Assembly (NCBI RefSeq): GCF_001677475.2
Contig: NZ_CP015229.1
DNA from: Escherichia coli
GTDB taxonomy: Bacteria > Pseudomonadota > Gammaproteobacteria > Enterobacterales > Enterobacteriaceae
Direction: 5' to 3' (one strand)
Length of the DNA: 64,000 nucleotides
Below, one piece after another: positions 1 through 49,233 of the stretch. A model generated the notes under the pieces. The model worked only from the letters and a program-made list of their open reading frames with translations, was not told the DNA's origin and ran no database searches. The position numbers and the translations under genes were made by a program. Numbering within the stretch: the stretch's first letter is position 1; each line of letters begins with the position of its first letter.

Positions 1-513
1 CGATTCCCCTTTCAGCTTCGCTGCCGCGCTGTAGGTTAATGTGTTTACATGATAGCGGCTTTCGAGTTTACCGGACGGTCCGCCAATAATTGGTACGCAG
101 ATTAACTGCCGCGATTGCCCCGCCTGCGGTAAGTTTTCAACCAGTGCGCTCACCGCGCGACCCCAGGAAAAACCGACAATATCGCCAGGCTCCAGCAAGC
201 GATCCAGCAGTTGCGCGCCGTGTAACCCCATCATCGCCAGTTGAGTCTCTTCATCCTCATCATTTCCCGACACCACCACAACGTCTTTCAGGCCAAACTT
301 TTGCTTCAGTTGCTGCTCCAGCCAGAGATTTTCGTTGTAGTCATAGTTGATGGCGATGGTGACAATTCCCTGATCGCGGCCTCGTTTAAGCAAGCGGCTG
401 ATGGTGGTGCGGTAAATACCCAGTTCGCGCGCAATTTGCGCCTGCGTCATATCCTGTTCGTAATAGAGTTGGGCAATCTTCACAATCAAACGGATATCGT
501 CACTGTTTTCCAT
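1..513 (-). CDS. sorC: SorC-family transcriptional regulator, N-terminal part (gene runs off the left edge)
   Basis: Reverse-strand translation from ATG at 513 gives MENSDDIRLIVKIAQLYYEQDMTQAQIARELGIYRTTISRLLKRGRDQGIVTI..., a SorC/DeoR-type HTH; AGGAGG RBS upstream. Absent from the ORF track because there is no stop in the window. The sorC name is inferred from map position. Confidence 0.6.
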   Translation of the reverse strand, partial: MENSDDIRLIVKIAQLYYEQDMTQAQIARELGIYRTTISRLLKRGRDQGIVTIAINYDYNENLWLEQQLKQKFGLKDVVVVSGNDEDEETQLAMMGLHGAQLLDRLLEPGDIVGFSWGRAVSALVENLPQAGQSRQLICVPIIGGPSGKLESRYHVNTLTYSAAAKLKGES

Positions 514-860
514 TGCCGCCTCCTGGTTCTGCACATTTGTGCAAATACGCTTTCTCACCGCTTGATCTGATATAACCCCATCATGATGGCCTTTCAAAGC
601 GATTTTTCACTCTTTGCATGGGGAGAAATAGCGCTTTCTCTTGCACATTTGTTTCTCTGCGTAGTAGTCATCAGCACAGGTGTGCAGCGATTCGTAATAT
701 GTTGATTATCTTTATTTTGCCAGGCAAATTTGCATCGTACTTCCGGAGACACTTTTGTGATAAAAGGCGTGGCAGATCACATTTAATTTCGACGTTGCCG
801 CATAACCCTGTTTTTCCCCGCTAAGAGGTACGGTATATTCCGCGTTTTACAGGAGAATTT

Positions 861-1733
861 ATGCTGCCCGACTCATCAGTCCGTTTAAATAAATACATCA
901 GCGAAAGCGGAATTTGCTCACGCCGCGAAGCGGATCGCTATATCGAGCAAGGCAATGTGTTCCTTAATGGCAAGCGAGCCACCATTGGCGATCAGGTGAA
1001 ACCCGGCGACGTTGTGAAAGTAAACGGTCAGTTGATTGAGCCTCGGGAAGCCGAAGATTTGGTACTTATCGCCCTGAACAAGCCCGTCGGTATTGTCAGC
1101 ACCACCGAAGATGGCGAGCGCGATAACATTGTCGATTTCGTTAACCACAGCAAACGCGTGTTCCCGATTGGCCGCCTGGATAAAGACTCCCAGGGGCTGA
1201 TTTTCCTCACCAATCACGGCGATCTGGTGAATAAGATCCTCCGTGCGGGTAACGATCATGAGAAAGAGTATCTGGTGACGGTCGATAAACCGATTACCGA
1301 TGAATTTATTCGTGGTATGGGGGCGGGGGTGCCAATCCTCGGGACAGTGACTAAAAAGTGTAAAGTCAAAAAAGAAGCGCCGTTTGTCTTCCGCATTACC
1401 CTGGTGCAGGGGCTGAACCGTCAGATCCGTCGCATGTGCGAACACTTTGGTTACGAAGTGAAAAAGCTGGAACGTACGCGCATTATGAACGTCAGTTTAA
1501 GCGGCATTCCACTGGGTGAGTGGCGCGATTTAACTGACGATGAGTTAATCGACCTGTTTAAACTCATCGAAAATTCCTCTTCCGAGGCAAAACCTAAAGC
1601 GAAGGCCAAGCCGAAAACGGTAGGCATCAAACGTCCAGTCGTTAAGATGGAAAAAACGGCGGAAAAAGGCGGTCGCCCGGCAACCAACGGTAAGCGTTTT
1701 ACCTCGCCGGGGCGTAAAAAGAAGGGGCGCTGA
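861..1733 (+). CDS. rluF: 23S rRNA pseudouridine synthase RluF
   Basis: 290-aa ORF with N-terminal S4 domain and RluA/RsuA-type core ([10 protein letters not shown]); basic C-terminal tail; RBS aggag. Confidence 0.9.
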
Positions 1734-1779
1734 TTAACGCCTCAGACTGATGAAAACGTCCAAAAAGTGCTCGGACAGT

Positions 1780-1817
1780 CCCCTCGCCCCTTCGGGGAGA
1801 GGGTTAGGGTGAGGGGA
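1780..1817. repeat. GC-rich imperfect palindromic intergenic repeat
   Basis: cccctcgccccttcggggagagggttagggtgagggg between convergent rluF and yjbD; resembles small E. coli intergenic repeat families; may act as a terminator. Confidence 0.4.
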
Positions 1818-1865
1818 AGATTGTGTCCACACAGACGAGTGAAAATCTCAGGCGTTGATTGTTCA

Positions 1866-2138
1866 TTAGCGCCTGCCGCGCGTCGACGTATTTGCTGACC
1901 AGCTAAATGACGCTTCAGGATCCGGTTTATAAGCCTGCTTTTTCTTCAATTGGCGGGCTTTTTTCGCTTCAGCCTCACGCTCGACCATTAATTTATCGAT
2001 GTACTCTTTCTTAATGCTGTTGGTTTCGGAGTTGGTCAGTACGCGACCATGCGCAATCCGCGCCCGATCCAGCAGTGTTTTAAGTTCACGCTGCTCGCGT
2101 TCAGTCATCTCTTTTTGGGTAATACGCGGGAGTGCCAT
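1866..2138 (-). CDS. yjbD: DUF3811-family small protein YjbD
   Basis: 90-aa ORF in the conserved position between rluF and lysC; charged, lysine-rich. Confidence 0.75.
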   Translation of the reverse strand: MALPRITQKEMTEREQRELKTLLDRARIAHGRVLTNSETNSIKKEYIDKLMVEREAEAKKARQLKKKQAYKPDPEASFSWSANTSTRGRR

Positions 2139-2390
2139 GATGTTGCCCTCAGTGAGCCAGAGAGTTCAGTGTACGGGAATTCGTTTGCGAGCAGAACTGA
2201 TAATATTCATTTTGCCTTCTCTTAACTATTTATCTCTTTCGATAATTAATTAGAGATGCAGATAAAAAAATTAAAGGCAATTATTCTCCGATAAAGACGC
2301 TGGTTAACAGAGTACAGGCTCGTTTATTGATGAGCATAGTGACAAGAAAATCAATACGGCCCGAAATATAGCTTCCAGGCCATACAGTAT

Positions 2391-3740
2391 TTACTCAAAC
2401 AAATTAAAATGCAGCTTCTGCACCACCTGCTCGGCATCTTCGCCGGGCACCAGGAAGCACAGGTTATGGCTGGATGCGCCGTAACAAATCATGCGAATGT
2501 TGAACGGTTCCAGTACGCCGAATACCTCTTTGCCAACGCCGCAGGCTTTTGACAGGTCATTGCCAATCAACGCGACCAGTGCCAGACCTTCTTCCACCTC
2601 CACCCGGCACAGTGCGGAAAGCTCCATCAGCAGAGATTGCGTCAGCAACGTATCGCCAGTGGAGGTTGAACCGGTGGTATCAAGGGTTAATGCCACGCTC
2701 ACTTCTGACGTGGTGATTAAGTCTACCGAAATATTATGCCGCGCGAGGATGCCGAAAACTTCTGCGAGGAAGCCGCGAGAATGCAGCATATTCAGGCTGT
2801 GCAAAGTGAGCAGAGTCTGATTGCGACGAAGCGCCAGCGCGCGGAACAGCGGCGGATTTTCAGTTTTATTGCACACCAGCGTACCACCTGCGCGTGGGTC
2901 TTTGCTGGAGCCGACAAAGACCGGGATATCGCTGCGTACTGCGGGTAGCAACGTTGCCGGATGCAGTACTTTTGCACCAAAAGTTGCCATCTCTGCCGCT
3001 TCGGCAAACGCGATTTCATCAATGCGTTTTGCTGCGGAAACTACGCGTGGATCGGTGGTGTAGATGCCCGGGACGTCGGTCCAGATATCAACACGAGATG
3101 CGTGTAAAGCCTCCGCCAGCAAGGCTGCCGTATAATCGCTGCCGCCACGGCCAAGCGTCGTTGTACGACCTTTATTTTCGCTACCGATAAATCCCTGGGT
3201 GATCACTAAGCCTTCATTGAGGCGTGGGAGCAGCTGCAGAGCGGCCAGTTCCGCCAGCGCGGCTACATCTGGCTCTGCACGACCAAATCGGTCGTTGGTA
3301 CGCATCACTTTACGTACATCAAACCACTGTGCCTGAACATCGCGTTCGCGCAGGATCTCAACAAACAGCAGGGTCGACATCAGCTCGCCGTGGCTGACCA
3401 GTTCATCTGTCAGCGCCGGAGACGTTGCCAGCGCCGCTGCTTCTGCCAGAACAGTAATGTTCTCCAGCAGACGTTCAATCTCTTCACGGATAACGTTCGG
3501 GTAACGCAGACGTTCCAGAATGGCAAACTGGATGTTGCGGATAGCGTCGAGTTTTTCGAATCGCTCGCCAGGTTCCAGCCCTTCCGCTAAAGCGACCAGC
3601 AGATTAGTGATACCAGCAGAAGCCGAGAGGACTACTAAACGCACGTTGGCATCAGAAAGCACAATATCAGCGCTGCGGTTCATGGCGTCAAAATCAGCTA
3701 CGCTGGTACCGCCAAATTTGGAGACAACAATTTCAGACAT
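2391..3740 (-). CDS. lysC: Lysine-sensitive aspartokinase III
   Basis: 449-aa ORF starting MSEIVVSKFGGTSVADFDAM with C-terminal ACT regulatory domains. Confidence 0.95.
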   Translation of the reverse strand: MSEIVVSKFGGTSVADFDAMNRSADIVLSDANVRLVVLSASAGITNLLVALAEGLEPGERFEKLDAIRNIQFAILERLRYPNVIREEIERLLENITVLAEAAALATSPALTDELVSHGELMSTLLFVEILRERDVQAQWFDVRKVMRTNDRFGRAEPDVAALAELAALQLLPRLNEGLVITQGFIGSENKGRTTTLGRGGSDYTAALLAEALHASRVDIWTDVPGIYTTDPRVVSAAKRIDEIAFAEAAEMATFGAKVLHPATLLPAVRSDIPVFVGSSKDPRAGGTLVCNKTENPPLFRALALRRNQTLLTLHSLNMLHSRGFLAEVFGILARHNISVDLITTSEVSVALTLDTTGSTSTGDTLLTQSLLMELSALCRVEVEEGLALVALIGNDLSKACGVGKEVFGVLEPFNIRMICYGASSHNLCFLVPGEDAEQVVQKLHFNLFE

Positions 3741-4025
3741 AACTACCTCGTGTCAGGGGATCCATTTTCAGCCTTGGCACAAGGGAAGAGCGGAAGACGG
3801 GTGGGCGCAGAGCGATACTTCGCTACTATTTTCACCCAGAAGTGCTCCACCACTTGCGAAACGCCCGACTGCGAACGCTTCTGGTGACAACCCAGGGGAT
3901 TCAGCCCCTGTAGCCGATGATGAACGTGGCCAGCCGTTCAATCACCTCGGCGATGCACCCCCTCAGGTGTTATCACAGGACTGGCTCCTCCAACACCGTT
4001 ACTTGGGCAACGCGCCTCTTCTGGC
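3741..4025 (-). ncRNA. lysC 5' leader containing the lysine riboswitch (LYS element)
   Basis: Minus-strand leader reads ...GAGGCGCGUUGCCCAAGUAACGGUGUUGGAGGAGCCAGUCCUGUGAUAACACCUGAGGGGGUGCAUCGCCGAGGUGAUUGAACGG..., matching the recalled lysC lysine-riboswitch aptamer; boundaries approximate. Confidence 0.75.
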
Positions 4026-4264
4026 CTGCGCTAGCGCAGGTAGTACATTTATAAATAAAGGGTGAGCGGGGCGGTTGTCAACGATGGGGTCATGCGGATT
4101 TTTCATCCACTCCTGGCGGTCAGTAGTTCAGCTAATAAATGCTTCACTGCGCTAAGGGTTTACACTCAACATTACGCTAACGGCACTAAAACCATCACAT
4201 TTTTCTGTGACTGGCGCTACAATCTTCCAAAGTCACAATTCTCAAAATCAGAAGAGTATTGCTA

Positions 4265-5914
4265 ATGAAAAACATCAATCCAACGCAGACCGCTGCCTGG
4301 CAGGCACTACAGAAACACTTCGATGAAATGAAAGACGTTACGATCGCCGATCTTTTTGCTAAAGACGGCGATCGTTTTTCTAAGTTCTCCGCAACATTCG
4401 ACGATCAGATGCTGGTGGATTACTCCAAAAACCGCATCACTGAAGAGACGCTGGCGAAATTACAGGATCTGGCGAAAGAGTGCGATCTGGCGGGCGCGAT
4501 TAAGTCGATGTTCTCTGGCGAGAAGATCAACCGCACTGAAAACCGCGCCGTGCTGCACGTAGCGCTGCGTAATCGTAGCAATACCCCGATTCTGGTTGAT
4601 GGCAAAGACGTAATGCCAGAAGTCAACGCGGTGCTGGAGAAGATGAAAACCTTCTCGGAAGCGATTATTTCCGGTGAGTGGAAAGGTTATACCGGCAAAG
4701 CAATCACTGACGTAGTGAACATCGGGATCGGCGGTTCTGACCTCGGCCCATACATGGTGACCGAAGCACTGCGTCCGTACAAAAATCACCTGAACATGCA
4801 CTTTGTTTCTAACGTCGATGGCACCCACATCGCGGAAGTGCTGAAAAAAGTAAACCCGGAAACCACGCTGTTCCTGGTAGCATCTAAAACCTTCACCACT
4901 CAGGAAACCATGACCAACGCCCATAGTGCGCGTGACTGGTTCCTGAAAGCGGCAGGTGATGAAAAACACGTTGCGAAACATTTTGCGGCGCTCTCCACCA
5001 ATGCCAAAGCCGTTGGCGAGTTTGGTATTGATACTGCCAACATGTTCGAGTTCTGGGACTGGGTCGGCGGCCGTTACTCTTTGTGGTCAGCGATTGGCCT
5101 GTCGATTGTTCTCTCCATCGGCTTTGATAACTTCGTTGAACTGCTTTCTGGCGCACACGCGATGGACAAGCATTTCTCCACCACGCCTGCCGAGAAAAAC
5201 CTGCCTGTCCTGCTGGCGCTGATTGGCATCTGGTACAACAATTTCTTTGGCGCGGAAACTGAAGCGATTCTGCCGTATGACCAGTATATGCACCGTTTCG
5301 CGGCGTACTTCCAGCAGGGCAATATGGAGTCTAATGGTAAGTATGTTGACCGTAACGGTAACGTCGTGGATTACCAGACTGGTCCGATTATCTGGGGTGA
5401 ACCAGGTACTAACGGTCAGCACGCGTTCTACCAGCTGATCCACCAGGGAACTAAAATGGTACCGTGCGATTTCATCGCCCCGGCTATCACCCATAACCCG
5501 CTCTCTGATCACCACCAGAAACTGCTGTCTAACTTCTTTGCTCAGACCGAAGCGCTGGCGTTTGGTAAATCCCGCGAAGTGGTTGAGCAGGAATATCGCG
5601 ATCAGGGTAAAGATCCGGCAACGCTTGACTATGTAGTGCCGTTTAAAGTGTTCGAAGGTAACCGCCCGACCAACTCCATCCTGCTGCGCGAAATCACCCC
5701 GTTCAGCCTGGGGGCGTTGATTGCGCTGTATGAGCACAAAATCTTTACTCAGGGCGTGATCCTGAACATCTTCACCTTCGACCAGTGGGGCGTTGAGCTG
5801 GGTAAACAGCTGGCGAACCGTATTCTGCCGGAACTGAAAGATGACAAAGAAATCAGCAGCCACGATAGCTCGACCAATGGTCTGATTAACCGCTATAAAG
5901 CGTGGCGCGGTTAA
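4265..5914 (+). CDS. pgi: Glucose-6-phosphate isomerase
   Basis: 549 aa starting [24 protein letters not shown]; the ORF track's start at 4259 is a TTG two codons upstream. Confidence 0.95.
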
Positions 5915-5933
5915 TTTAAAAACCTTAATAACA

Positions 5934-5961
5934 ATGCCGACGTTATGTCGGCATTTTTTTA
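5934..5961 (+). terminator. Rho-independent terminator of pgi
   Basis: Hairpin atgccgacgttatgtcggcat followed by a T7 run. Confidence 0.8.
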
Positions 5962-6108
5962 TCAGATAAATCCCCTTGTCTGTGATTTAACGGAAATCAT
6001 ACCGTGAGGTTAATCCTAAAATAGATTTTTAATCGTTGTTTATTTCGGAAAATACGCAGATTAATTACTTTTGTTTTTATTTTAAGTTTATGATTTTTAT
6101 TGTTATTT

Positions 6109-6132
6109 AAATATAAGTTGAAACTTATATTT
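6109..6132. promoter_or_regulatory. Perfect dyad in the AT-rich yjbE upstream region (candidate operator)
   Basis: aaatataagtt-ga-aacttatattt, 11-bp perfect inverted arms, about 140 bp upstream of yjbE. Confidence 0.35.
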
Positions 6133-6268
6133 GATATTCATTCCAATTATCCTAAAACGCCATCGCTAATTCCCCGCGCCGTAATTCGCATGCTTTAGTT
6201 GTGTATACTCGATCCCGCCCGAAATGTTTTTGGGTAAATCTCCATTCATTCAATGAAGGGAAATTGTT

Positions 6269-6511
6269 ATGAAAAAAGTTCTGTATGGCATTTTTGCCAT
6301 ATCTGCGCTTGCGGCGACTTCTGCGTGGGCTGCACCTGTACAGGTGGGCGAAGCGGCAGGGTCGGCAGCAACGTCGGTTTCGGCGGGTAGTTCCTCCGCG
6401 ACCAGCGTCAGCACCGTAAGCTCGGCGGTGGGTGTCGCGCTCGCGGCAACCGGTGGCGGTGATGGTTCTAATACCGGGACCACAACAACCACAACCACCA
6501 GTACCCAGTAA
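6269..6511 (+). CDS. yjbE: Secreted Ser/Thr/Ala/Gly-rich low-complexity protein YjbE
   Basis: 80 aa with signal peptide (ALAATSAWA) and a Thr7 run; first gene of the yjbEFGH cluster. Confidence 0.75.
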
Positions 6512-6697
6512 TAAAGTATGTATCCCCAAAATAATTCGAGTTGCAGGAAGGCGACAAGCGAGTGAGTCCCCGGGAGCATAGATAACTATGTGACCGGGGT
6601 GAACGAGTGCGGTCACCGCATCTGCAGCTTGAAGTATGAAGGGGATTAACCATAACCACACTCCGGTGTGGTTATTCTGCCCCTCTGGAGAAGAGTC

Positions 6698-7333
6698 GTG
6701 AAGCGACCTGCACTCATTCTTATCTGTCTGCTATTACAGGCCTGTTCAGCCACGACTAAAGAGCTGGGCAATTCACTGTGGGACAGTCTGTTCGGCACGC
6801 CAGGCGTACAGCTGACGGATGATGATATTCAAAATATGCCCTACGCCAGCCAGTACATGCAGCTTAATGGCGGGCCGCAATTGTTTGTGGTGCTGGCCTT
6901 CGCTGAAGACGGACAACAAAAATGGGTCACTCAGGATCAGGCCACTCTCGTCACACAACATGGTCGTCTGGTGAAGACTTTGCTTGGTGGCGACAACCTG
7001 ATTGAAGTGAATAACCTTGCCACTGACCCGCTGATTAAACCCGCACAAATTGTTGATGGTGCAACATGGACGCGCACGATGGGCTGGACCGAGTACCAGC
7101 AGGTACGCTACGCCACCGCACGCTCAGTCTTCAAATGGGATGGCACCGATACCGTCAAAGTCGGCAGCGATGAAACCCCGGTTCGCGTGCTGGACGAAGA
7201 AGTCTCCACCGACCAGGCGCGCTGGCATAACCGCTATTGGATCGACAGCGAAGGGCAAATTCGCCAGTCGGAACAGTATCTCGGCGCGGATTATTTCCCG
7301 GTGAAAACCACTCTCATCAAGGCGGCAAAATAA
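6698..7333 (+). CDS. yjbF: Lipoprotein YjbF
   Basis: GTG start gives MKRPALILICLLLQAC with lipobox LQAC; RBS ggagaagag. The track ORF starts 10 codons upstream at 6668. Confidence 0.8.
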   Translation: MKRPALILICLLLQACSATTKELGNSLWDSLFGTPGVQLTDDDIQNMPYASQYMQLNGGPQLFVVLAFAEDGQQKWVTQDQATLVTQHGRLVKTLLGGDNLIEVNNLATDPLIKPAQIVDGATWTRTMGWTEYQQVRYATARSVFKWDGTDTVKVGSDETPVRVLDEEVSTDQARWHNRYWIDSEGQIRQSEQYLGADYFPVKTTLIKAAK

Positions 7334-8070
7334 TGATTAAACAAACTATTGTCGCGTTGCTTTTGAGTGTGGGAGCGTCATCGGTCTTCGCGGCAGGAAC
7401 CGTCAAGGTGTTCAGCAATGGCAGCAGTGAGGCCAAAACGCTAACGGGCGCAGAGCATTTAATCGATCTGGTAGGCCAACCGCGGCTGGCAAACAGCTGG
7501 TGGCCTGGTGCGGTGATTAGCGAAGAGCTGGCAACGGCGGCAGCATTGCGTCAGCAGCAGGCGTTGCTGACACGGCTGGCAGAACAGGGCGCAGATTCCA
7601 GCGCCGACGATGCCGCTGCGATTAACGCCTTACGCCAGCAAATTCAGGCGTTGAAAGTGACGGGCAGGCAAAAAATCAATTTTGATCCCGATATCGTCCG
7701 CGTTGCCGAACGCGGTAACCCGCCGTTGCAGGGCAACTACACGCTGTGGGTCGGACCACCGCCGTCCACGGTCACGCTGTTCGGGCTTATCAGCCGTCCT
7801 GGCAAGCAGTCATTCACTCCAGGTCGCGACGTGGCGAGCTATCTCTCTGACCAGAGCCTGCTCAGCGGTGCGGATCGCAGCTACGCATGGGTGGTTTACC
7901 CGGACGGACGCACGCAAAAAGCGCCGGTGGCTTACTGGAACAAGCGTCACGTAGAGCCGATGCCCGGCAGCATTATTTATGTTGGCCTCGCGGACTCCGT
8001 CTGGAGTGAGACGCCTGATGCCCTTAACGCCGACATTCTTCAGACTCTGACGCAGCGGATACCTCAATAA
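7333..8070 (+). CDS. yjbG: Periplasmic protein YjbG
   Basis: [20 protein letters not shown] signal peptide; ATG overlaps the yjbF stop (taATGa), indicating translational coupling. Confidence 0.8.
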
Positions 8071-10166
8071 TGAAAAAAAGACATCTGCTTAGCTTACTGG
8101 CGCTGGGCATTAGCACAGCTTGCTACGGCGAAACATATCCTGCGCCCATTGGTCCGTCGCAGTCGGATTTCGGTGGCGTAGGATTATTACAAACGCCCAC
8201 CGCGCGCATGGCGCGGGAAGGGGAGTTAAGCCTGAACTATCGAGATAACGATCAGTACCGTTATTACTCAGCTTCAGTGCAACTCTTCCCGTGGCTGGAA
8301 ACAACGCTGCGTTACACCGACGTGCGCACCCGGCAGTACAGCAGCGTCGAAGCGTTCTCTGGCGATCAAACGTATAAAGATAAAGCCTTCGATCTCAAAC
8401 TGCGTTTGTGGGAAGAGAGTTATTGGCTGCCGCAAGTGGCGGTTGGTGCGCGGGATATCGGCGGTACGGGGCTGTTTGATGCGGAATATCTTGTTGCCAG
8501 CAAAGCCTGGGGGCCGTTCGATTTTACACTCGGCCTGGGCTGGGGATATCTGGGCACCAGCGGTAACGTGAAAAATCCGCTCTGTTCAGCCAGTGATAAA
8601 TATTGCTATCGCGATAACAGCTACAAACAGGCGGGATCTATCGACGGTAGCCAGATGTTCCACGGTCCTGCCTCACTGTTTGGCGGCGTGGAATACCAGA
8701 CATCCTGGCAGCCGCTGCGCCTGAAACTGGAGTATGAAGGCAATAATTATCAGCAGGATTTTGCCGGGAAGCTGGAGCAAAAAAGTAAGTTTAACGTCGG
8801 GGCGATTTATCGCGTTACCGATTGGGCCGACGTTAACCTTAGCTATGAACGTGGCAACACCTTTATGTTTGGCGTCACGCTGCGCACCAACTTTAACGAT
8901 CTGCGCCCTTCTTACAACGATAACGCCCGCCCGCAATATCAACCGCAGCCGCAGGATGCCATTTTGCAGCATTCGGTGGTGGCGAATCAGTTAACGCTGT
9001 TGAAATACAATGCCGGACTTGCCGATCCGCAGATCCAGGCGAAAGGCGATACGCTGTATGTTACCGGCGAGCAGGTGAAATATCGTGATTCGCGTGAAGG
9101 GATCATCCGTGCTAATCGGATCGTGATGAACGATCTGCCGGATGGGATCAAAACGATCCGCATTACGGAAAACCGCCTTAACATGCCGCAGGTGACGACG
9201 GAAACCGATGTCGCCAGCCTGAAAAATCATCTCGCCGGAGAGCCGTTGGGCCACGAAACGACGCTGGCGCAAAAACGCGTCGAGCCAGTGGTTCCGAAGT
9301 CCACCGAGCAGGGCTGGTATATCGACAAATCACGCTATGATTTCCATATCGATCCGGTGCTGAACCAGTCGGTCGGTGGCCCGGAAAACTTTTACATGTA
9401 TCAGCTGGGCGTGATGGGAACGGCAGATTTGTGGCTGACGGACCATCTGCTGACCACCGGCAGCCTGTTTGCAAATCTTGCCAACAACTACGACAAGTTT
9501 AACTACACCAATCCGCCGCAGGACTCGCACTTACCGCGCGTTCGTACCCATGTGCGCGAGTATGTGCAGAACGATGTCTATGTGAATAACCTGCAAGCCA
9601 ACTACTTCCAGCATCTGGGCAACGGCTTCTACGGTCAGGTCTATGGAGGTTATCTCGAAACCATGTTTGGCGGTGCGGGGGCAGAAGTGTTGTATCGTCC
9701 GCTGGACAGCAACTGGGCGTTTGGTCTGGATGCCAACTACGTTAAACAGCGCGACTGGCGTAGTGCAAAAGATATGATGAAATTCACCGACTACAGCGTG
9801 AAAACCGGACATCTGACCGCCTACTGGACGCCATCTTTCGCTCAGGATGTGTTAGTGAAAGCCAGCGTCGGGCAGTATCTGGCAGGGGATAAAGGCGGCA
9901 CGCTGGAGATCGCTAAACGCTTTGACAGCGGCGTGGTGGTTGGCGGCTATGCCACGATCACCAACGTTTCGAAAGAGGAGTACGGCGAAGGGGACTTCAC
10001 CAAAGGCGTGTATGTCTCTGTACCGTTGGATCTCTTCTCGTCTGGCCCGACACGCAGCCGTGCGGCGATTGGCTGGACGCCGCTGACGCATGACGGTGGT
10101 CAGCAACTTGGGCGTAAGTTCCAGTTGTATGATATGACCAGCGACCGTAGCGTCAATTTCCGCTAA
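8070..10166 (+). CDS. yjbH: Outer-membrane beta-barrel-like protein YjbH
   Basis: 698 aa; ATG overlaps the yjbG stop; signal peptide with lipobox-like STAC; C-terminal F (NFR) typical of outer-membrane proteins. Confidence 0.8.
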
Positions 10167-10212
10167 GTCATGGGAAAGGTGCCAGTTTTCGCAATCACTG
10201 GCACCCTCATTC

Positions 10213-10461
10213 TTAATGGCCTGTTGAGCCATCAGGAACGCAGTTCACCCCCGGTTTGCGATCTGGTGTGTAAAGGCGAAAACATTCTGTCTTCCTGTCC
10301 GTCGATATCGGTTGCAGGTCTGGTTGCCTGAGCGACTGGGCCATCATTGGGCTGGAGACATTGCTTTGCGGTAGGTCGGCTTTATCAGCAGTACCGAACG
10401 GACCAGCATAAGCAGGAAGAACAGAGACTGATAACATCAAAGCAGCAAAATAAGGCTTCAT
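10213..10461 (-). CDS. yjbT: Small secreted protein YjbT
   Basis: MKPYFAALMLSVSVLPAYAG signal peptide preceded by aggtgg RBS; an alternative start 10 codons upstream (10491) has a poor RBS. Confidence 0.6.
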   Translation of the reverse strand: MKPYFAALMLSVSVLPAYAGPFGTADKADLPQSNVSSPMMAQSLRQPDLQPISTDRKTECFRLYTPDRKPGVNCVPDGSTGH

Positions 10462-10589
10462 TTTTACCACCTTTATCAGGTTACGTTTCATTTGTTCCAG
10501 AGGAACATTGTCGATTTTTCGCGCATTGCTGGTGGCTGGGAATCACCTGAATGGGTGATTTTTGCAGTACAGGCTATGGTGCGGTTTGT

Positions 10590-10665
10590 CTTGCCGGATG
10601 CGCCGCCAGGCGCGGCTTATCCGGCCTACGGGTAGGACGGATAAGGCGTTCACGCCGCATCCGGC
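10590..10665. repeat. REP/BIME cluster
   Basis: gccggatgcgccgccaggcgcggcttatccggcctac and gtaggacggataaggcgttcacgccgcatccggc. Confidence 0.85.
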
Positions 10666-10780
10666 GCTGGCGGGAGGCACCATCTAACACCAGGTTGAAC
10701 AAAACATACACAAAAAATATAGATCTCCGTCACATTTTTGCGTTATACAGGAAGCTCGCCACTGTGAAGGAGGTACTGCT

Positions 10781-11191
10781 ATGACGTCACTCTCTCGTCC
10801 GCGCGTGGAGTTTATCTCCACCATTTTGCAGACCGTACTCAATCTTGGCCTGTTGTGCCTCGGCCTGATTTTGGTTGTCTTCCTCGGCAAAGAAACGGTG
10901 CATCTGGCTGATGTGCTGTTCGCGCCAGAACAAACCAGCAAATATGAGCTGGTAGAAGGACTGGTGGTTTACTTTCTCTATTTCGAATTTATCGCGCTGA
11001 TTGTGAAGTACTTTCAGTCCGGTTTTCACTTCCCGCTACGTTACTTTGTCTATATTGGGATCACCGCCATTGTGCGCTTGATCATCGTCGATCATAAATC
11101 GCCACTGGATGTGTTGATCTACTCGGCTGCGATCCTGTTACTGGTAATCACCCTGTGGCTGTGTAATTCGAAACGGCTGAAGCGGGAGTAA
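10781..11191 (+). CDS. psiE: Phosphate-starvation-inducible inner membrane protein PsiE
   Basis: 136-aa multi-TM protein; strong RBS gaaggagg. Confidence 0.85.
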
Positions 11192-11234
11192 AAAGACAGC
11201 ACGCCGAACTGGCGCGGCGTGCTGGACAGGAAGA

Positions 11235-44531: not shown

Positions 44532-45068
44532 ATGGCCAGCAGAGGCGTAAACAAGGTTATTCTCGTTGGTAATCTGGGTCAGGACCCGGAAGTACGCTAC
44601 ATGCCAAATGGTGGCGCAGTTGCCAACATTACGCTGGCTACTTCCGAATCCTGGCGTGATAAAGCGACCGGCGAGATGAAAGAGCAGACTGAATGGCACC
44701 GCGTTGTGCTGTTCGGCAAACTGGCAGAAGTAGCCAGCGAATATCTGCGTAAAGGTTCTCAGGTTTATATCGAAGGTCAGCTGCGTACCCGCAAATGGAC
44801 CGATCAATCCGGTCAGGATCGCTACACCACAGAAGTCGTGGTGAACGTTGGCGGCACCATGCAGATGCTGGGTGGTCGTCAGGGTGGTGGCGCTCCTGCA
44901 GGTGGCAATATCGGTGGTGGTCAGCCGCAGGGCGGTTGGGGTCAGCCTCAGCAGCCGCAGGGCGGCAATCAGTTCAGCGGCGGCGCGCAGTCTCGCCCGC
45001 AGCAGTCCGCTCCGGCAGCACCGTCTAACGAGCCGCCGATGGACTTTGATGACGATATTCCCTTCTAA
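44532..45068 (+). CDS. ssb: Single-stranded DNA-binding protein
   Basis: 178 aa, [44 protein letters not shown]..., Gly/Gln-rich linker and acidic tip DFDDDIPF. Confidence 0.98.
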
Positions 45069-45118
45069 GAATCTGCGTCTTTGGTGTTGAGATCTCTCAA
45101 CGCGAAACATATGCGTAC

Positions 45119-45145
45119 AGGAGCCGAAAATGAATTTCGGCTCCT
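45119..45145. terminator. Hairpin between convergent ssb and the 193-aa orphan ORF
   Basis: aggagccgaaaatgaatttcggctcct; no strong U-tract. Confidence 0.5.
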
Positions 45146-45179
45146 GAAATAGTCAAGGATTGTTCCTCTCATTAATTTA

Positions 45180-45761
45180 TTATTCCGGGTTATACAAAAT
45201 ATTCAGTTTTGCACCTTGTACCAGTTTATATTCTTTATACTCTCTTTCTACTTCATGTCGCTCGGCTTTGTTTAACTGTGTGGTCAATTTTCTAAGGTTT
45301 TCAACAACAATAGCCATATTTAATTCTTCAGGAAGCGATCTTGTTTCACTCCATTTTTTTCCGTGTAAAAACCCGCCATGGTCTATATTAAAATGGGTTT
45401 CCTCTACACTGAATATTATTTTTGTGCCTAGCCCATCTTGTCTGATGGATACAGTTTGGCGTAAATAATCATTTTGAGAAATAAAATTTATATCTTTGGG
45501 GGTTCCATCAATATTGGACTCGAAAGAGGTTACTTCTGCCATGAGTTTAGATACTCGCTGAGAATTAAACTCGACTTTCCCATGCGTGATGAAATGAATA
45601 AGATCCTTCAAGAGATTTGTAAAACCATCAATCTTTTTATAAATAACTGCGTTTAATTTTGATGAATTTGCAAATTTTTTATCTGCTTTAACCAGGTCAT
45701 TCTGAAATTGCTCCAGTGTTATTTTATTTTGAGTTCCTATATTATTATTATATATCGTCAT
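45180..45761 (-). CDS. Hypothetical 193-aa protein, AT-rich orphan ORF convergent with ssb
   Basis: Strong RBS (aaaggagaagatcATG); no stops over 582 bp in AT-rich DNA; soluble, charged, no recognisable motif (MTIYNNNIGTQNKITLEQFQNDLVKADKKF...). Confidence 0.6.
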   Translation of the reverse strand: MTIYNNNIGTQNKITLEQFQNDLVKADKKFANSSKLNAVIYKKIDGFTNLLKDLIHFITHGKVEFNSQRVSKLMAEVTSFESNIDGTPKDINFISQNDYLRQTVSIRQDGLGTKIIFSVEETHFNIDHGGFLHGKKWSETRSLPEELNMAIVVENLRKLTTQLNKAERHEVEREYKEYKLVQGAKLNILYNPE

Positions 45762-46032
45762 GATCTTCTCCTTTATAATTTATTGAGAACATTACGTTGG
45801 ACGTTAGGTAGTACAATTTATTTGTTTTCATCCTAGCCTTAATCAAATTTTGAACTATCAAAAATTGCTCATTTGTATAAAATTCAGCAAGGAGGTGGCG
45901 AAGATAGTGAAGATGCTAAGCGTACAACACCTTCAAGCGTTGATTAAAAGAAAGTGCGATATGTGATGATAGGGCGGCCGAGGAAGCTATTCATCGACCG
46001 CTTGTGAAGGGATAAAAGTCAAGAAAGTGAAA

Positions 46033-48739: not shown

Positions 48740-49204
48740 ATGGAAAAGAAATTACCCCGCATTAAAGCGCTGCTAACCCCCGGCGAAGTGGCAAAACGCA
48801 GCGGTGTGGCGGTATCGGCGCTGCATTTCTATGAAAGCAAAGGGTTGATTAGCAGTATCCGTAATAGTGGCAATCAGCGGCGATATAAACGTGATGTGTT
48901 GCGATATGTCGCAATTATCAAAATCGCTCAGCGTATTGGCATTCCTCTCGCGACCATTGGTGAAGCGTTTGGCGTATTGCCCGAAGGGCATACGTTAAGT
49001 GCGAAAGAGTGGAAACAGCTTTCGTCCCAATGGCGAGAAGAGTTAGATCGGCGCATTCATACCTTAGTGGCGCTGCGTGACGAACTGGACGGATGTATTG
49101 GTTGTGGCTGCCTTTCGCGCAGTGATTGCCCGTTGCGTAACCCGGGCGACCGCTTAGGAGAAGAAGGTACCGGCGCACGCTTGCTGGAAGATGAACAAAA
49201 CTAA
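48740..49204 (+). CDS. soxR: Redox-sensing MerR-family regulator SoxR
   Basis: 154 aa; MerR HTH; [2Fe-2S] cysteine cluster [16 protein letters not shown]. Confidence 0.97.
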
Positions 49205-49233
49205 AGCGCCACAAGGGCGCTTTAGTTTGTTTT
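49202..49233 (+). terminator. Terminator of soxR
   Basis: Hairpin taaagcgccacaagggcgcttta followed by a T-rich tract. Confidence 0.7.

Follow-up and report, generated by a model that had tools for sequence, protein, structure and literature searches.

The left edge of a 64-kb Escherichia coli window as the probable right-hand end of an L-sorbose operon segment, with a candidate SorC operator in the sorC/rluF spacer

The left edge of the window, the 64-kb stretch of Escherichia coli DNA analyzed here, most probably belongs to a chromosomal L-sorbose operon. Positions 1-825 are read as the right-hand end of a segment of about 6.3-6.4 kb, sorCDFBAME, located between pepE and rluF, in which bases 513-1 encode the N-terminal half of the regulator SorC. 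The probability of this reading is estimated at roughly 0.9. The window itself holds only 513 bp of sorC, and the rest of the operon is deduced from an identical public contig and from other genomes. The spacer between sorC and rluF contains three palindromic boxes of the form TTGCAC-N4-GTGCAA, which are probably the SorC operator, judging from their conservation.

On the minus strand, an open frame of 171 codons without interruption occupies window 1-513 and runs off the left edge. Based on the translation, Pfam and the match to PDB 2W48, it is the 5' part of sorC (codons 1-171 of 315), and the gene continues leftward beyond the window. The start codon is the ATG at 513-511, and a Shine-Dalgarno sequence, AGGAGG, is read directly from the sequence on the same strand at 519-524, 5 nt 5' of this ATG. 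Most other genera start sorC at an ATG that lies two codons upstream of the E. coli start. The apparent non-ATG starts of sorC in other genera (ACG, ATC, ATA) were rejected, as an in-frame ATG is present two codons upstream. On the plus strand, rluF (861-1733), recognized from its ORF and from the annotation of matching E. coli genomes, encodes the 23S rRNA pseudouridine synthase and is the core gene that flanks the sor segment. The divergent spacer at 514-860 is 347 bp long. The first-pass annotation had described a SorC-family regulator leaving the window divergently from rluF across a spacer of just this length, and both points are correct.

The Pfam family Sugar-bind (PF04198) matches SorC residues 58-170 at E=4e-29, covering profile positions 2-112 of 257. 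At the N-terminus, residues 11-52 match several helix-turn-helix models. The order of an N-terminal HTH followed by the PF04198 sugar-binding domain is seen in complete form in the contig ABOZJW010000006.1 and in E. coli LR-45. The window fragment is identical to Klebsiella pneumoniae SorC (PDB 2W48) at 147 of 171 residues (86%) and to the LR-45 orthologue at 170 of 171. In the DNA-binding domain, 54 of the first 55 residues are shared with K. pneumoniae SorC. The full-length LR-45 orthologue matches 2W48 at E=3e-183 and the Shigella flexneri "probable sor-operon regulator" (PDB 3EFB) at E=8e-177, and residues 51-171 of the window protein are identical to the latter. Weaker matches of the LR-45 orthologue are Bacillus subtilis DeoR (6e-40) and LsrR (5e-29), to which the identity of SorC is about 30-48%. 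The PDB title "sorbitol operon regulator" is a misnomer, as the operon meant is that of L-sorbose. Judged by its sequence, the window regulator is a true SorC orthologue, not another member of the family.

Searching with the window's exact RluF protein retrieved the public contig ABOZJW010000006.1 (assembly GCA_033753315.1), which shows 0 mismatches to window 1-11733 over the 11,733-bp overlap. Leftward, this contig carries sorC-sorD-sorF-sorB-sorA-sorM-sorE, followed by pepE, yjbB and metH. Its sorC is full length (315 aa). The other genes encode an SDR dehydrogenase (sorD, Pfam adh_short), EIIA-man (sorF), PTSIIB_sorb (sorB), EII-Sor (sorA), EIID-AGA (sorM) and a Zn-ADH-type reductase (sorE, ADH_N/ADH_zinc_N). 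The gene set at the locus is therefore that of a mannose-family PTS (IIA/IIB/IIC/IID) with an SDR dehydrogenase and a reductase, and the RefSeq names in E. coli LR-45, where the sor genes have the same order, agree. Each of the seven sor ORFs of the contig has its full length with no internal stop and shares 96-100% identity with its LR-45 counterpart. In this contig and in 24 other enterobacterial loci, sorC is the first gene and is co-oriented with sorDFBAME. The search for sorD, sorF and sorBAM by leftward extension, which had been proposed as a check, thus finds sorbose PTS, reductase and dehydrogenase genes. In the described pathway, the mannose-family PTS SorFBAM imports and phosphorylates L-sorbose, SorE reduces the product to glucitol-6-phosphate, and SorD oxidizes it to fructose-6-phosphate (PMC13410766, PMC12817954).

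In K-12 MG1655, pepE adjoins rluF directly across a 211-bp spacer, as the first-pass annotation had stated, and comparison at the junction shows that K-12 lacks the sor segment. Its expectation that some E. coli strains carry sorCDFBAME in this region is likewise borne out by the segment between pepE and rluF. The right-hand junction is at 825/826: by blastn and alignment, the first base homologous to K-12 is 826, which corresponds to position 4320 of the K-12 stretch and precedes the rluF ATG by 35 bp. On the pepE side, sor-positive genomes and K-12 are alike for ~88 bp upstream of pepE and diverge beyond. Sor-positive genomes have ~6.3 kb where K-12 has ~88 bp of unrelated sequence. A deletion scar within this K-12-specific sequence was considered and rejected, as its comparison with the sor segment gave only chance matches of at most 11 bp. 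If the spacer holds the SorC operator as proposed below, the DNA upstream of rluF in sor-positive strains would be sor regulatory sequence except for its last 35 bp, and the rluF promoter would therefore differ from that of K-12.

Of 5426 complete E. coli genomes, 2867 have the sorC fragment and 2865 (53%) the entire 6.4-kb segment, which was counted as present when at least 80% covered. From these two counts, sorC at this place is almost always accompanied by the full operon. Other E. coli sor segments match the window at 97-99% identity. A published survey reported the operon in >86% of genomes in all phylogroups except A (9.6%) and B1 (12.1%) (PMC12817954). For comparison outside the species, 27 enterobacterial loci with SorC were fetched. 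sorCDFBAME adjoins rluF-yjbD in six other genera (Pseudocitrobacter, Citrobacter, Klebsiella, Raoultella, Cedecea and an Enterobacter sp.), and pepE is found on the far side in the first four of them. For Cedecea and the Enterobacter sp., rluF-sorCDFBAME is seen, and the fetched stretch does not include pepE.

The best reading of this distribution is an ancestral syntenic operon that some E. coli lineages have lost or had replaced by recombination. The conserved position across genera and the absence of tRNA genes, mobility genes and junction repeats argue for such an operon against a mobile island. The alternative is that the segment came by horizontal transfer, as a genomic island that entered a pepE-rluF junction of ancestral, K-12-like form. 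Its patchiness in E. coli, found in 53% of complete genomes, is in line with acquisition, as are the ~88 bp of unrelated sequence at the K-12 site without a clean deletion scar, REP-like repeats at the pepE-side border, and the somewhat AT-richer spacer and sorB. However, the order rluF-sorCDFBAME-pepE is kept in Pseudocitrobacter, Citrobacter, Klebsiella and Raoultella. No tRNA gene was found in the sor segment, no integrase or transposase gene in its annotation and Pfam lists, and no direct or inverted repeat of at least 8 bp common to both of its junctions. The GC content of the segment, 0.511, is near that of the flanks, 0.52-0.54. That only phylogroups A and B1 depart from the high frequency is compatible with loss in these two groups (PMC12817954). 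Insertion of an island is therefore considered unlikely, though it is the strongest of the competing explanations. A strain-variable metabolic island had been proposed at this edge; the variability between strains stands, given the segment's presence in 2865 of 5426 genomes and absence from K-12, but a mobile island is not the best reading.

The presence of sorC does not by itself mean that the operon works. Shigella strains retain sor DNA and are yet sorbose-negative, as Lehmacher and Bockemuehl (2007) are cited to say in PMC2831201; from that account, gene presence is not a proof of function. The operon could likewise be decayed or non-functional in the strain of the window. The identity of SorC residues 51-171 to the S. 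flexneri protein of 3EFB goes in this direction, and no complete E. coli genome matches window 1-2400 above 98.6% over the full length. On the other hand, all seven sor genes are intact in the contig identical to the window, at 96-100% identity to LR-45. Decay in this strain is thus regarded as improbable.

In the spacer, the clearest box is O1 (529-544), TTGCACAAATGTGCAG on the sorC strand, which reads TTGCAC-AAAT-GTGCAG and has 0 mismatches to the box pattern. It is located between the putative promoter and the Shine-Dalgarno sequence and is a candidate high-affinity SorC operator. Its 14-bp core, TGCACA-NN-TGTGCA, is a perfect palindrome and recurs without change at -30/-31 relative to the start codon in 24 of the 27 enterobacterial loci. 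Box O2 (641-656), TTGCACATTTGTTTCT on the plus strand, has its centre 112 bp from that of O1. One arm is perfect (TTGCAC on the plus strand, corresponding to ...CAAATGTGCAA on the sorC strand), and the other is degenerate. The block at 636-651 over O2 is conserved in 14 of 16 columns, and the box is at -142/-143 in other genera too. Box O3 (672-687), CAGCACAGGTGTGCAG on the plus strand with the core GCAC-N4-GTGC, has 1 mismatch to the pattern. The centre of O3 is 31 bp from that of O2 and 143 bp from that of O1, and its core is found at -172 to -176 in 23 of 27 loci.

The positions of the boxes, -30/-31, -142/-143 and -173/-174 as counted from a start codon of the E. coli type, and their spacing are kept in 25 of the 27 enterobacterial loci, though the intervening sequence diverges. 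From O1 to O3, 24 loci have a spacing of 143 bp and one a spacing of 144 bp, and only the two Kluyvera loci differ. The 112- and 31-bp spacings are invariant from Escherichia to Pantoea. When up to 2 mismatches were allowed, TGCACANNTGTGCA gave 2 matches in the 64-kb window, both in the spacer; the chance expectation for such a 14-mer is ~4 in the whole window and ~0.02 in 347 bp. GCAC-N4-GTGC occurs 52 times in the 27 upstream regions of 300 bp, compared with 2 times in the other 415 kb of those loci. The boxes are also kept in four loci where sorC does not adjoin rluF, so that they belong to sor rather than to rluF. Homologues in Bacillota, 43-47% identical and with the same recognition helix, GIYRTTISR, have TTGCACAATTGTGC and a nearby GTGCAA-type half box upstream of their genes. 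No sor PTS genes were found in the neighborhoods of these homologues, and they therefore support only the link between the box and the DNA-binding domain. The location of the SorC operator in the 347-bp spacer, as the first-pass annotation had expected, is well supported by these sequence patterns.

The palindromes might instead be bound by another factor, such as a global regulator, with SorC binding elsewhere. The spacer does hold further conserved blocks without an assigned factor, at 561-582, 724-733 and 747-784. Against such a factor, the boxes accompany sorC even where rluF is not its neighbor, they precede the genes of Bacillota homologues that share the recognition helix, they hardly occur elsewhere in the loci, and they match the operator architecture of DeoR, a protein of the same family (PMC11229326). 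There is little chance that another factor accounts for them. A sigma-54 reading of the GCAC/GTGC boxes was rejected, since the GG-to-GC spacing is 9 nt, not 10. It is scarcely credible that the regulator is a different SorC-family member, of DeoR, LsrR or another sugar-operon type, controlling genes other than the sorbose PTS: NCBIfam has no SorC-specific model and gives only sub-threshold matches to DeoR (Bacillus type) and LsrR, which is why the RefSeq name is the generic "sugar-binding transcriptional regulator", and in Kluyvera a 70%-identical relative occupies the same position with a shikimate-dehydrogenase-like gene replacing the sor genes, but the 86% identity to the experimentally studied K. 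pneumoniae SorC, against ~30-48% for DeoR and LsrR, and the full sorDFBAME downstream of sorC in the identical contig decide for SorC.

Among the remaining blocks, GATGGGGTTATATCAGATCAAG on the sorC strand (561-582) is nearly invariant, with 18 of 22 columns conserved in 28 sequences. It includes a -10-like TATATC (574-569) and a GATC site and is, with low confidence, a putative core promoter and start region. A -35-like TTGAAA (592-597, minus strand), 17 bp upstream of TATATC and with its TTG mostly conserved, is also a low-confidence element, and another conserved block, AAAATCGCTTT, spans 596-606. TTGAAA (597-592), the 17-bp spacing and TATATC (574-569) are proposed, tentatively and with some doubt, as a weak promoter with a start near 562. 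TATATC is without the conserved final T. Scans of the spacer for consensus sigma-70 promoters and terminators, in the window and two other species, found nothing, and the proposed promoter is therefore called by eye and weak. The absence of a consensus promoter fits an activator-dependent promoter. With a start near 562, O1 is at about +25, O2 at about -86 and O3 at about -117. An alternative -10, GATAAT (710-705), would go with a start near 698. An Rfam scan of the whole window gave no RNA family in 1-860.

Farther from sorC, a perfect 10-bp palindrome, GCAAATTTGC (724-733), is partly conserved (GCAAyTTTG). An O4-like box at 747-762, TATCACAAAAGTGTCT on the sorC strand, has an invariant core, CAC-AAAA-GTG (750-759, 10 of 10 columns), and is conserved also at loci where sorC does not adjoin rluF. 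It is a candidate for either a variant of the SorC box or the site of another factor. The adjacent AAATGTGATCTGCCACGCCTTT (763-784, sorC strand) contains an invariant TGTGATC (775-781). Its left half equals the CRP consensus half-site, and its right half is poor, with 3 of 5 core mismatches. It is a weak candidate for a CRP site or a further half box of the AAATGTG type; as a CRP site it is only weak because of the poor right half and its position ~210 bp upstream of the putative start.

The operon is described as sorbose-induced, with SorC repressing it without sorbose and activating it with sorbose, in the summary that PMC12817954 gives of Woehrl (1990). The likeliest mechanism is a switch drawn from the arrangement of the boxes. 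A SorC tetramer may bridge O1 and O2/O3, and the weak promoter (about 569-597) would then be enclosed in a repression loop. Binding of the inducer would release the contact with O1. SorC would stay held at O2/O3, upstream of the -35 region, and might then help RNA polymerase. The fixed 112- and 31-bp spacings argue for a constraint on distance, and we infer looping at sor only from this conserved spacing. The phasing of such a loop is ambiguous, because neither the O1-O2 nor the O1-O3 distance is a whole multiple of 10.5 bp.

We lean, with modest confidence, toward a SorC operator of the form TTGCAC-N4-GTGCAA that has one perfect copy in the presumed leader and a phase-locked pair upstream, the box itself being conserved as far as the Bacillota homologues. 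This would be the first definition of the operator and would imply a loop-to-activator switch that sets it apart from DeoR and CggR, whose operators are contiguous. The searchable literature yielded no published operator for SorC. According to a paper of 2010, a site had been identified within the family, CggR aside, only for DeoR (PMC2943609).

The E. coli sor operon has already been mapped, cloned, surveyed and functionally studied, and its recognition at the left edge of the window is a correct and ordinary finding. It has been published before that the operon lies near metH/pepE, that K-12 lacks it and that E. coli lineages carry it unevenly, and links of sor to fitness and virulence were studied in 2025-2026 (PMC12817954, PMC13410766). 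What the analysis provides is a firm annotation of the window's left edge, evidence for an ancestral syntenic operon lost in some lineages as opposed to a mobile element, and a concrete prediction of SorC operator boxes, which are not described in searchable papers.

The closest known systems are other sor operons. That of K. pneumoniae has the same gene order and domain content as E. coli sorCDFBAME. Its SorC (2W48) is 86-87% identical, with about 13% protein divergence and a virtually identical DNA-binding domain, and the Klebsiella species examined have the same boxes upstream of sorC. E. coli CFT073 carries the operon as c4981-c4987 at the same pepE-rluF locus, and the window differs from it only allelically. 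A fragment of CFT073 that spans the stretch from sorE up to the last base ahead of rluF enables DH5alpha, a K-12 derivative, to grow on sorbose (PMC2831201). The published cloning primer maps to window 834-861, and the cloned fragment therefore includes the whole spacer.

At the level of the operator, B. subtilis DeoR is the nearest case. DeoR belongs to the SorC family, and the two proteins share 48% identity in the DNA-binding domain (PMC11229326). Its operator, ATTGAACAAAATTTCAAT..., uses a 16-bp 6-4-6 palindrome, as do the SorC boxes, and the arms of its left half-operator, TTGAAC-AAAA-TTTCAA, which was defined by experiment, differ from those of the SorC box at one position (TTGAAC against TTGCAC) (PMC11229326). 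The DeoR arginines with reported base contacts align with R35 and R40 of SorC. For both proteins, a tetramer is expected to contact two sites. The layout is different: the half-operators of DeoR are contiguous, 39 bp in total and overlapping the -35, whereas the sor boxes, with spacings of 31 and 112 bp, lie on either side of the putative promoter. The half-operators of DeoR and CggR are separated by ~two helical turns, a distance that the sor boxes, at 31 and 112 bp, do not show. DeoR only represses; for SorC, by contrast, a dual role is reported.

The protein family of AraC is unrelated to SorC. AraC is nevertheless a dual regulator with promoter-distal and promoter-proximal sites at a fixed distance, as is proposed here for SorC. 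In the AraC-type switch, the inducer turns a repression loop into an upstream activator complex, and the likeness to the switch that SorC may operate is one of working principle only.

Upstream of rluF, homology between the window and K-12, which has no sor segment (sorCDFBAME, the L-sorbose operon), is limited to the last 35 bp (window 826-860). Therefore, judging from the sequence, the rluF promoter in sor-positive strains must lie within sor-linked sequence, which is not the same as the promoter region of K-12. The opposite border, between pepE and sorE, is seen at positions 8500-8800 of the LR-45 locus (L001), where the repeats GCCTGATGCGCTACGCTTA... and TGTAGGCCGAATAAGGC... are found at the pepE-side edge of the sor segment. 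These repeats are REP/BIME-like, judged by comparison with REP consensus sequences.

Among complete RefSeq E. coli genomes, no match to window 1-2400 over its full length exceeded 98.6% identity. The draft assembly GCA_033753315.1 is identical to the window over 11.7 kb. Residues 51-171 of SorC encoded in the window are identical to the Shigella flexneri protein of PDB entry 3EFB. The window may come from a Shigella, or from an E. coli lineage of which few complete genomes are available.

Other differences from K-12 were observed further into the window. Downstream of pgi, window 5916-6611 differs from both K-12 and LR-45 by small indels. An additional ~143 bp is present in K-12 after the position corresponding to window 5915, and positions 6542-6611 (~70 bp) are extra sequence in the window. 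The Rfam element STnc430 (window 5923-6072) is located in this region downstream of pgi. Rfam matches, taken at the gathering threshold, are also found at window 3832-4028, 15551-15621, 49197-49337, and 56589-56660. One of them is the lysine riboswitch that precedes lysC; the others are two naRNA4 elements, which derive from REP sequences, and sraL. Between ssb and yjcB, ~100 bp of K-12 is replaced by an AT-rich segment of 965 bp (window 45067-46031), whose GC content is 0.35 versus 0.50 for the window. It contains an ORF of 193 aa on the minus strand (45180-45761), annotated as "hypothetical protein", for which no Pfam family was found. Only 22 of the 5426 complete E. coli genomes carry this segment, 20 of them at only 80-90% identity.

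SorC homologues from Bacillota are 43-47% identical to SorC and have the same recognition helix. Boxes of the TTGCACAATTGTGC type are present upstream of them (L028, ~7820-7850; L029, ~7950-7985; L030, ~7890-7925). No sorbose PTS genes were found near these homologues at the three loci. In Kluyvera (L024, 7965-9757; L025), the interval between rluF and pepE contains a SorC-like regulator (70% identity) and, next after it in place of sorDFBAME, a gene that resembles shikimate dehydrogenase genes. The Kluyvera regulator has the same GCAC-N4-GTGC boxes, the candidate SorC operator, at -29 and -130 relative to the start codon.
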